A DNA stretch of 64,000 nucleotides from positions 744,001 through 808,000 of the forward strand of contig CP145417.1 of NCBI GenBank assembly GCA_036867785.1, written 5' to 3'. The DNA is from Plasmodiophora brassicae (taxonomy: Eukaryota). The number at the start of each line of letters is the position of its first letter. Position 1 is the first letter of the stretch. Shown here piece by piece: positions 55,395 through 58,432 of this stretch. Under the pieces are notes generated by a model. That model was not told where the DNA came from. It ran no database searches and saw only the letters and a program-made list of their open reading frames with translations. A program made the translations under genes and the position numbers.

Positions 55395-55658
55395 GGCCCC
55401 CCCACGGGATGATTGCTGACTGCAACGAAGGGTCACGCTGCGCCGCCTTTGCGACACTTTTGGCAACCCCCGTCTGTCAGGATGTTATTGGTCGTTTTCA
55501 TCCAAAATGAAATTTTCTGCGTCAGTTGACAGCCGTGGATCCAAGTATCGCGACGGCATTTTTTGGTGATGACTGGTCAGGATCGCTCCGGATCATCACC
55601 AAACTCCGTACGTCAGCCTGCGATCAGCGCGCTCAGGTTGCCAGCTGTTCGACCAACG

Positions 55659-56732
55659 ATGGCGTCGTCTGGACCTGGGGATAGTGGATCAACCGCCAAT
55701 GAGATCCTCGAAGGAGATGATCGTGTTCATGTCACACTTGACGTGATTGTGAAACCGTATGTAAGCATACAGCCGCGGAACACGTTGTATCACGTTCTAG
55801 GCCAATTCGACGTCGAAGTGGCCACCGTTGGCGACTTTACAGACGCCGTACTTGGTCTCGTTCAAGAAAACGTAGACGGCCTGGCTCGCAAGTCATCTGA
55901 CGACGACTCGACGTATATACTTGCTAAGGAGACCGTAACGTTAACGTCACTGGACCAGTTTGTTGCCATCAAACACAACAATCACTTCTACGCCTTCCAC
56001 CGTCCACATGGCGAGGATCACCGAGATCCAATGCGTACCCCAACTGTTGTGCTAACGTTCAAATTGAAGTTAGTCACTGAATGTTGTTCTTGGCATACAG
56101 GCATAACCAAGGACACGCTTAACCGCTGGAGTAAGGACGTCCCGAGTCTATTCATTTATCAGTACGGGAAAGAGCTGCGAAACGCATCGGACTTCAAGAA
56201 GTTTCAAGCGTCTGTGTTCTCGGCTCCGCAGTTGGACCGTGCTCGCGCCGCTGCCGATGAACAAGTGAGAGCGATCGAACGCCAACTGAAGGATCACTGG
56301 GGAACGGTATATCAATCCCAGTCAGCCAACTGGCGGATTTGGGCCAGTCGCATCGCGCGCGAGCCGGTCACACGTCGAGCTGCTTTGATCGAGGATCCGC
56401 CTCCATACGAAATCGTCCACCTCTTCGAGCACTCGCCACTACAAAATGGACCGTTGCTCACGACCCTCCGGGAAGACAATTCCACAACGCTAGCGATTCT
56501 GGACACGATGGACGATCACTTGCAAGAGTTTCAGGACTTTATCCATCGCCAGATCGAGGCGTTTCGCGACAGCGTTGGGTGCCAGATGCGGCAGATGCGC
56601 GACACCGTGCGCCGACATCGACGAGTTGCTGAGGCGCTTAGGGCTAGTCTTCATCCCGAGGAACTTCCTGATAATCTGAACAGGCTGCAGAGGGCTCCCA
56701 ATCAGAGTGATGTAGACCATGAGGATCAATAA
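55659..56732 (+). CDS. Transposon-associated accessory protein of unknown function
   Basis: Open frame (MASSGPG…), likely in-frame intron 56035-56100; motifs IYQYG, DRARAA, HWGTVYQSQSANWRIWA, PPPYEIVHLF, coiled coil, C-terminal DVDHED. Confidence 0.75.
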   Translation: MASSGPGDSGSTANEILEGDDRVHVTLDVIVKPYVSIQPRNTLYHVLGQFDVEVATVGDFTDAVLGLVQENVDGLARKSSDDDSTYILAKETVTLTSLDQFVAIKHNNHFYAFHRPHGEDHRDPMRTPTVVLTFKLKLVTECCSWHTGITKDTLNRWSKDVPSLFIYQYGKELRNASDFKKFQASVFSAPQLDRARAAADEQVRAIERQLKDHWGTVYQSQSANWRIWASRIAREPVTRRAALIEDPPPYEIVHLFEHSPLQNGPLLTTLREDNSTTLAILDTMDDHLQEFQDFIHRQIEAFRDSVGCQMRQMRDTVRRHRRVAEALRASLHPEELPDNLNRLQRAPNQSDVDHEDQ

Positions 56733-56734
56733 AT

Positions 56735-57917
56735 TTATTCGAATCCGGCCTCCGTCATGCGATTGGTGATGTCCTTGTAGGCGACGCCTGGATTGAACTT
56801 TCCGTTTGCGCCAAACCCACATTTCTTGAACAGACCTCTCATATCATATCTCCGAAACTTCTTGAGTTCCGTTAAGATTACAACAGGGAGGTCCTTCGGT
56901 TTGACATTGCCTTCAGCATACCAACGCCTAAGGCTTTTCTTGACAAGACCGAACACAATCTCAATCGGGTTGAACATCGGACAGTAGGCTGGCAGGAAGA
57001 TGGGAATGATGCCGAGATCCCGTAGGTACTCGACTATCGTATGATGGCAATGTATCCTGGCTCCATCCATGATCCAAACCGATTGCCGCCCAGGATGCTT
57101 CTGAACTCGGCCGGACAGAGCATGCTCACGGACGCATTCGACAAATTTCTGACGATCGAACGTGCCCTCTGTGAGAAATGTGCCTTCCAACCCATCACAT
57201 CCGATGAAGCACAACAACGAGCTACGCGGCCTTCTGACGAATTCGCCTCTGAAGAGCAGTTCCTGGCCCTGCATAACGCATGTTAGGGTCCTGTATACGG
57301 ATAACGTTGGGGAACTCGTCGACAGACCTTAAGCGCATAACCCTTGCGACGTAGCATGTCCCGGTTGTCGAGGCCGAACTCGTCAAGAAAGCACAGGCTG
57401 GAGTGGGTCCAGTCGATAGCGTTGAGTTCCTCGAAGAATCGGACGATGTCTGCTTCCTTGATCTGGATGGCTCGACGGACAATGAGCTATTCAACAGTAA
57501 GCCGAAACTGATAACCCATTCCTGTTCGAGTCGTACCTTTCGAGTAAAGCCGTATTCGCGAAGTATGCGCCAGATCGTGCTCAAACTGATGTCGTTCTTC
57601 CAGTTGATTTCGAATGCCAGCTTGGCTTCGTCAAGAAAGGACAAAGGGTTGGCGAGGAAGTAGTCCCTTATCCATTCGCGGTGTTCAGGCGTGTACTTCC
57701 GCTGCGACTCTGTTGCCTTACGGGATACGGCACCGGTGCGCTCGTACCGCTCGATCCATCTGCCGATCGTCGATGGCGCCTTGCGATACAAAAGGGCTAT
57801 CTGATTCTGCTTGAGGCCGATGAAATAGTAGGCGTACAGCGCATGCAGTTTGGTGTTCTCTGTAGCATGTTGGCTTTCAATTGCTTCGGACACGTGTACA
57901 CCATGAGCGGCCGCCAT
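56735..57917 (-). CDS. IS630/Tc1-like DDE transposase with N-terminal HTH, 3 exons
   Basis: HTH (IALLYRKAPSTIGRWIERY; ISLSTIWRILREYG), FLDE, IMDGARIH, LPAYCPMFNPIE (34 residues between D and E); introns 57536-57487 and 57327-57269 restore one open frame. Confidence 0.93.
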
Positions 57918-58432
57918 CTCCAACGCTGGCACCTACGCGCTTTGCAATAATTTTGTAACTGAAAAAGAGGGAGCACGACGCCACAGATCACATCTACAAC
58001 CTTGAACGGGCGTTACATCGTCTGCTCGCGCTCGTGCAATCCAAATCAGGTATAACAACTAGTCTCAGGTCAACCACTACCGAACAGGACACGATTGCGA
58101 AGACGGTTGTTTCTCGAGCTCCGTTTAATTGATCAGAATCGCCGCTACGTATCTTCTCTACCTGCTTGACTGAAAGATTGCCACATCCCGTCCCTATATC
58201 TTCTGGAAGCTACAGGTTTCAAGTCAAACCAGCCGAGCAAGCGCGCTCGCGATAGTTGGGCACCAACAATCGCGAAAAAAATGCGTGGCGACGGTTGATA
58301 GTTGGGGCGATTGCATTTCGGACGGCAATCGCAATACATACACAGGTATTGCCGTACGCAGAAAAACGCAGTCGACACTGATCAGCGGGGCCCGTTTTTC
58401 GTTTTACAAAAACCAGACATAGAGAAAGGCCG

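Follow-up and report, generated by a model that had tools for sequence, protein, structure and literature searches.

A candidate two-gene IS630/Tc1-like transposon unit in Plasmodiophora brassicae: a spliced DD34E transposase tail to tail with a conserved partner gene

Can a transposon of the Tc1/mariner group be built from two genes rather than one? The question is raised by a locus of Plasmodiophora brassicae, the clubroot parasite (Rhizaria), which has a compact genome with few repeats. The locus lies in a stretch of 64,000 nt (contig CP145417.1 of assembly GCA_036867785.1, positions 744,001 to 808,000 of the forward strand), which we refer to as the window and in which all positions given below are counted. 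A spliced transposase gene with a DD34E catalytic triad occupies the minus strand and a second gene, which we call the partner, occupies the plus strand, and the two converge tail to tail. An earlier reading of the letters, made without database searches and referred to here as the original prediction, had proposed that they form an intact two-component element. In textbooks, transposons of the Tc1/mariner type stand for elements with a single protein, and gene-transfer tools such as Sleeping Beauty have been built on them.

Here, we describe the two genes, a second copy of the pair, the families to which both proteins belong and the evidence for and against a joint function. Our preferred reading, which we hold with moderate confidence, is that the pair is a two-gene IS630/Tc1-like transposon unit whose partner is a lineage-specific accessory protein.

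The transposase and a second copy of the pair

By its domains and catalytic residues, the transposase is an intact IS630/Tc1-type DD34E enzyme. Its three exons (Table 1) join into a protein of 357 amino acids (aa) with no internal stops, and the same three blocks are recovered by tblastn. The best match in the databases is P0007, an annotated P. brassicae protein of 417 aa named 'Tc1-like transposase DDE domain-containing protein', to which the joined product aligns without gaps over 353 residues with 12 differences (3.4%). Since P0007 is the gene model of a related copy, this gapless alignment means that our splice model matches an independent annotation. The Pfam family DDE_3 (PF13358) is detected in exon 3 with an E-value of 7.4e-15 and in P0007 with one of 1.7e-19, and exon 1 scores 33.6 bits against HTH_23 (cut-off 24.6) and 30.8 bits against HTH_32, the latter being under its cut-off of 33.7.

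The catalytic triad is formed by the D of CFLDEFG, the D of WIMDGARIH and the E of NPIE; 34 residues separate the second D from the E. In P0007 numbering these are D162, D248 and E283, which are invariant in 41/41 aligned family members, and all 12 differences between the window transposase and P0007 leave the invariant columns untouched. The NCBIfam IS630 model NF033545, which was scored on P0007 and on window exon 3 rather than on the joined window protein, gives 122.6 bits (cut-off 100) on the 97%-identical P0007 and 56.1 bits on exon 3 alone, as expected for a partial sequence. The intact three-exon DD34E transposase of the original prediction is thus borne out, with its 357-aa product, GT..AG introns, DDE_3 match and invariant triad.

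P0007 also supplies the strongest evidence that the two genes form a unit. Its residues 354-417 (64 aa) are the antisense translation of window positions 56490-56681, with 1 difference in 64; this segment lies within the 3' coding region of the partner, and on the partner strand the single change is synonymous (ACC to ACA). Behind a second transposase copy, in which 3.4% of the residues differ, partner sequence therefore follows again, at similar spacing and on the other strand. Because the P0007 tail is the antisense of the partner 3' end, the tail-to-tail pair is present at least twice in P. brassicae. Read from the protein P0007, the pair appears to have been duplicated as a unit in this genome, which agrees with the two-component pairing that had been proposed from the window. 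The 64-aa antisense tail itself (window 56490-56822, minus strand) is probably an annotation artefact that hides the opposite-strand copy of the partner.

The stop codons of the two genes, TAA at 56730-56732 on the plus strand and TAA at 56737-56735 on the minus strand, are 2 nt apart, a spacing that the original prediction had already read directly from the sequence (56732/56735), and both are contained in the palindrome AATAAATTTATT. This palindrome is unique in the window and occurs in 0/100 shuffles, and two of the five AATAAA hexamers of the whole window fall within it. From its letters, AATAAATTTATT may be a shared two-way 3'-end signal. We infer that the transposase and partner transcripts overlap; that their convergent 3' ends yield double-stranded RNA is conjecture. 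Elsewhere in the window, another AATAAA (8655-8660, minus strand) stands directly beside the stop of a long open reading frame (ORF; 8651..10471, minus strand), which hints that the P. brassicae genome may tend to have an AATAAA on or close to its stop codons.

The junction also bears on the simplest alternative, which is that the two genes are chance neighbours: the partner would belong to an independent multicopy or host family without a role in transposition, and the second copy would have arisen by segmental duplication. Stop codons that lie 2 nt apart in a perfect palindrome speak against this, since the end of a transposon 3' of the transposase would then fall inside the coding sequence of the partner. 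We consider chance neighbourhood unlikely, and further evidence on both sides is given below.

Table 1. Coordinates of the two genes, their junction, the flanks and the neighbouring genes, in window positions (exons are given in the direction of transcription)
Feature	Coordinates	Strand	Details
Transposase exon 1	57917..57537	-	127 aa; N-terminal helix-turn-helix DNA-binding region; HTH_23 E 3.2e-08, HTH_32 E 4.2e-07
Transposase intron 1	57487..57536	-	50 nt, GT..AG; junction as in the P0007 gene model
Transposase exon 2	57486..57328	-	53 aa; first catalytic D in CFLDEFG; 100% identical to P0007 residues 128-180
Transposase intron 2	57269..57327	-	59 nt, GT..AG; junction as in the P0007 gene model
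Transposase exon 3	57268..56735	-	177 aa plus stop; DDE_3 core with second D and E
Palindrome AATAAATTTATT	56728..56739	both	Perfect, 12 nt; contains both stop codons; AATAAA on each strand
Partner gene	55569..56732	+	387 aa from first ATG
Partner probable intron	56035..56100	+	66 nt, GT..AG, CTAAC at 56052; in frame, stop-free
Left flank	55424..55568		Between Serinc ATG (55394) and first ATG of partner; possible degenerate terminal region
Right flank	58261..58403		Upstream of transposase ATG, just before stop of EDC4-like gene (58433)
Serinc family gene	53736-55394, ATG at 55394	-	Two coding pieces, E 6.9e-31 and 6.3e-05
Gene with EDC4 C-terminal domain	58433-59029, stop at 58433	-	E 2.8e-16

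The partner and the relatives of both proteins

The partner was predicted as an intact plus-strand ORF of about 340 aa, and this has held up: it has 387 or, in its database version P0004 (start at 55659), 357 aa unspliced, and 335 aa after removal of a probable intron. The 66-nt segment in question is probably a real intron that happens to be readable, a view suggested by several features of the sequence. Once the segment is removed, the last 258 residues of the 335-aa product are exactly those of P0005 ('hypothetical protein PBRA_005741, partial [Plasmodiophora brassicae]'), which is identical to the window partner over these 258 residues and is probably the same locus in another assembly rather than a paralogue. 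The residues encoded within the segment are present in only 5% of 54 aligned partner relatives, the structure model of the partner described below has a predicted local distance difference test (pLDDT) score under 50 at residues 119-147, which match the segment, and several of the closer relatives break here into an N-terminal and a C-terminal fragment. Because the intron is in frame and contains no stops, both the spliced (335 aa) and the retained (357 aa) forms would be translatable.

Its conservation marks the partner as a genuine protein, and the large family to which it belongs has no name. An exhaustive HMMER search over 1.84 billion representatives places it in a family of 239 clusters at E ≤ 1e-3, with 41 at ≤ 1e-10 and 5 at ≤ 1e-30, and 52/149 of the retrieved matches are 290-400 aa long and end in D-x-D-H. 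Five positions are invariant in an alignment of 54 sequences (L210, A229, P248, D351 and H354) and a further seven are at least 90% conserved (D193, R194, A197, W225, W228, P249 and F256). The family motifs are DRAGAA, NWRxWA, PPPxxIHLF and a C-terminal PNxxD-x-[DE]-H.

One relative with a name is the mosquito protein LOC135707521 of Ochlerotatus camptorhynchus. The nearest ESM-Atlas clusters are mainly from Arthropoda (77 members, 0.93; 64 members, 0.92) and mainly from Oomycota (54 members, 0.89); the best Atlas cluster that carries a name, DUF2420, was rejected as an identity for the partner at 0.76, which is under the level of a lead. Among 185,579 prokaryotic genomes, 599 pattern matches yielded 0 confirmed relatives, and on these searches the family is eukaryote-only. 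P0006, a relative with 46% identity to the partner, is encoded on a contig of 2,453 nt.

Domain searches returned little for this family. The partner is without a match in Pfam or NCBIfam, no Pfam family is common to it and 53 relatives (15 families each matched 1/54 members), and a profile search of PDB sequences with the partner family gave coiled-coil noise only (E ≥ 0.046). The statement of the original prediction that the partner carries no recognisable RuvC or Myb motif is in line with these results, which extend it to other Pfam domains and to the relatives. A side observation concerns P0273, a protein of 1100 aa with a zf-AD-like N-terminus (25.2 bits, cut-off 28), three partner-like modules and C2H2 fingers. 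This combination of domains suggests that a zinc-finger protein of insect type has taken up the partner domain, which looks like a domestication.

We modelled the partner with AlphaFold2 from the family alignment (pLDDT 82.9, predicted template modelling score 0.61). The model has an N-terminal beta-rich domain (strands at 23-111), a helical domain (helices at 151-245) that includes DRAGAA, NWRxWA and PPPxxIHLF, a single helix of ~70 residues (260-330) and, after a short C-terminal helix, an acidic tail that ends in the invariant D-x-[DE]-H. Foldseek found nothing at E ≤ 0.001 for this model, with best E-values of 0.3 in the PDB and 0.27 in BFVD, and because of this null in both databases the predicted fold is not recognisably like any solved one. 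The beta-grasp/ubiquitin-like and superantigen-like rows of the Foldseek output for the PDB are weak and were not relied upon.

Of the 398 candidates from the search with the transposase, 127 reached E ≤ 0.001, and 120 of these are listed. Among the matches listed, relatives that are 46-60% identical over exon 3 come from mosquitoes, other Diptera, oomycetes, a chytrid and P. brassicae. The mosquito genera among them are Culex, Aedes, Sabethes, Armigeres, Uranotaenia, Wyeomyia, Toxorhynchites and Topomyia; the other named relatives are from the Diptera Bradysia and Culicoides and the oomycetes Aphanomyces, Pythium and Phytophthora, besides the chytrid. The Sleeping Beauty catalytic domain (E 9.8e-4) is the sole solved structure that the sequence profile reaches, and for this reason we regard the lineage as remote from canonical Tc1. 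DD34E/Gambol, which was first reported from mosquitoes, is described as a mosquito group that is distinct from Tc1 and has TA duplications (PMC7386202). The lineage described here possibly resembles DD34E/Gambol, for which the mosquito relatives are a lead only.

Two further observations concern the transposase relatives. In P. brassicae, another transposase belongs to this lineage as well, the 50%-identical P0100 (355 aa). A hand tally of the transposase-bearing contigs under 6 kb among the matches listed (n=85) gave 30 under 1.7 kb, 40 of 2.4-3.4 kb, 14 of intermediate size and 1 of 5.4 kb; the group of 2.4-3.4 kb would fit elements of ~3 kb and was given no weight, because long terminal inverted repeats (TIRs) or flanks could explain it equally.

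Weighing the pair as a transposon unit

We infer that the partner serves the transposon as an accessory protein of its own, and under this reading it would bind the transposase. It would oligomerise via its ~70-residue helix, perhaps presenting the conserved D-x-D-H tail or using the conserved helical domain. In this way it would promote or restrain transposition, whether at the level of assembly, by nuclear delivery or as an inhibitor; the analogy is with PIF/Harbinger, MuDR and CACTA elements and their second proteins. Owing to the shared palindromic AATAAATTTATT, each of the two transcripts would have to terminate within the other or read into it, and their expression could thereby be coupled. 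The suggestion that the partner targets, regulates or counter-silences transposition is conjecture.

The binding step was addressed by complex prediction, with P0007 residues 1-353 as chain 1, P0004 as chain 2 and no use of alignments. The score of the pair was 0.53 (runs of 0.56, 0.53 and 0.52) and that of the best of three controls was 0.00; at least 56% of contacts agree between runs, and the partner has a pLDDT of at least 68. In the calibration of this score, the mark was reached by 51/78 solved complexes and by 2/108 mismatched pairs, and the passes at or below 0.60 comprise 5 of those 78 solved complexes and all 4 passing mismatches (of 180). The model lends weak support to binding of the transposase by the partner; it is the one functional hint for the partner and raises the odds of binding slightly. 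Of the two structure predictions that had been proposed as checks of the locus, that of the partner alone gave a confident model with no recognisable known fold, and that of the partner with the transposase gave this weak support.

The weak binding prediction also fits another explanation, in which the partner is a selfish passenger: as cargo, it would be spread by the transposon that carries it and would have its effect on the host, at the level of chromatin or RNA for instance, rather than on transposition. The transposase has its own helix-turn-helix region, so that no targeting subunit is needed, and the recruitment of the partner domain into P0273, a putative insect transcription factor, fits a passenger too. 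Against this, the partner family is conserved over its full length and keeps a strict C-terminal D-x-D-H, and a dedicated cofactor would explain no less well why it appears to be co-distributed with a single transposase lineage. We regard a passenger as very unlikely and return to the two-gene transposon unit.

Several observations weigh against that unit, and the complex score is among them, as 0.53 sits where passes are more often wrong than right. At three positions that are well conserved in the family, the window partner has a residue other than the consensus (W65L, P93V and G196R). Linkage of the transposase and the partner is seen only within P. brassicae, where both genes, being adjacent, would likewise be copied by a segmental duplication, and no second copy is found within the 64-kb window by blastn or by tblastn with nine family proteins. 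No fused partner-transposase protein occurs among 154 x 120 sequences (a match of P0241 to P0121 with E 7.6e-4 was considered as a fusion and taken as chance), and the partner contigs (1743, 1936 and 2453 nt) are equal in size to none of the 85 short transposase contigs. The search of both proteins for homologues, which had been suggested as a check, did find both families in mosquitoes/arthropods, oomycetes and P. brassicae, which is a second line of evidence for the unit; because Tc1-like transposases are so widespread, these shared taxa are only circumstantial.

Much of this would sit well with chance neighbours: the linkage is documented inside one genome only, neither contig sizes nor fusions link the two families elsewhere, no TIRs enclose the pair, and the partner-like domains of the ZAD/C2H2 protein P0273 imply that the domain can live outside transposons. 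Chance neighbourhood accounts less readily for the multicopy state of the partner family in precisely those taxa where the transposase lineage occurs, or for the base composition of the locus, which is described at the end of this paper.

The ends of the element are the part of the original prediction that we could not confirm. It had described an intact element at 55468-58390, for which we find no convincing TIRs and no TA duplication. Strict TIR searches (repeat finding, self-BLAST with word size 7, local alignment, and enumeration of all end pairs whether or not flanked by TA) were at chance level, the best strict local inverted score being 22 compared with 18.5 ± 2.2 in shuffles (maximum 27). 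No TA-flanked inverted termini were found, and the best TA-flanked pair agrees at 12/20 positions.

A permissive alignment of the flanks gives a weak signal in favour of the two-gene unit, of limited weight because the gap costs were chosen post hoc after colinear short matches had been seen. With these costs, 55424-55568 and 58403-58261 show weak gapped inverted similarity with a score of 62, compared with 42.2 ± 5.7 in shuffles and 36 in direct orientation. This score is reached by 1/300 shuffles and by 4/574 and 1/556 real-sequence controls, and the ends of the alignment are without a flanking TA. Long terminal regions that have decayed would have such an appearance, but the similarity is weak.

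That the ORFs and the catalytic triad are intact while no termini can be recognised leads to a further explanation, namely a domesticated or immobilised pair that descends from a two-gene transposon, has lost its ends and is kept as host genes or is slowly decaying. It is compatible with a transposon origin. The low copy number fits (from P. brassicae, the search recovered P0007 and the distant P0100), as do the host-style short GT..AG introns in both genes and the tight fit of the pair between two host genes. The weak inverted similarity of the flanks, in contrast, resembles degenerate termini, and copies that differ at 3.4% of transposase residues suggest a fairly recent duplication. We give a domesticated pair a low probability, similar to that of chance neighbours.

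Known systems and the surrounding locus

The transposase fits the DD34E branch of IS630-Tc1-mariner in its domain content (helix-turn-helix plus DDE_3), its length of ~350 aa and its triad, and the paralogue P0007 scores above the cut-off of the NCBIfam IS630 model. According to a published account, Tc1 elements consist of a single transposase ORF between TIRs (PMC7325037). The locus described here differs in having a second conserved gene tail to tail with the transposase, and in that TIRs and TA duplications were not found. The same source gives as multi-ORF exceptions the ciliate TBE and Tec elements of the Tc1/mariner group, which have long TIRs and three ORFs, with a zinc-finger protein or a site-specific recombinase among the products (PMC7325037). 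They share with our pair the combination of a DD34E transposase with further ORFs, and in Tec one of these lies on the complementary strand (PMC7325037). The partner differs from the additional ciliate proteins in that it matches neither a zinc-finger nor a recombinase domain.

PIF/Harbinger elements serve us as a working analogy, in that a DDE transposase is accompanied by a separately encoded second protein. In PIF/Harbinger, this second protein is needed for transposition, and MuDR and CACTA elements also carry second proteins. The difference is that our transposase is of DDE_3/IS630 and not of Harbinger type, and that the partner is without Myb/SANT or any other Pfam domain. Fanzor/TnpB-carrying eukaryotic transposons likewise combine a transposase and an extra gene in one element; here, the partner has neither a RuvC-like domain according to Pfam nor such a fold according to Foldseek against the PDB and BFVD. 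We found no description of the partner family or of a two-gene Tc1/Gambol element in the full-text literature, with subscription papers and Repbase/TEfam lying outside the search.

If the two-gene reading is true of a whole lineage, part of the Tc1/mariner group would work with a cofactor or regulator, in the manner of PIF/Harbinger, MuDR and CACTA elements. A function and an origin would also be gained for a family of at least 239 clusters that is unnamed in Pfam and has no solved relative, and the partner-like domains in an insect zinc-finger protein would be explained as a domestication event. For P. brassicae, the pair would mark a possibly active DNA transposon. A wider proposal is that a widespread and so far unrecognised two-component lineage of IS630/Tc1-like (possibly Gambol-like) elements exists in mosquitoes, oomycetes, plasmodiophorids and other groups, in which an obligatory cofactor of unsolved fold binds via its long helix and D-x-D-H tail and has been domesticated in insect ZAD/C2H2 proteins. 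We put this forward tentatively and regard it as possible, with the balance of our judgement on the doubtful side.

The immediate surroundings of the pair are ordinary host genes, the Serinc family gene on the left and the EDC4-like gene on the right (Table 1). The two-gene unit fills the 3,038 nt that separate the start of the former from the stop of the latter. The guanine plus cytosine (GC) content is 0.530 and 0.523 in the two genes and 0.534 and 0.497 in the two flanks, the lower value being that of the right flank (57918-58432), compared with 0.58-0.64 in the neighbouring genes. The lower GC of genes and flanks alike, compared with the host genes on either side, is a third line of evidence for a unit and argues against chance neighbours. 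Across the window, GC is ~0.53-0.69 per kb.

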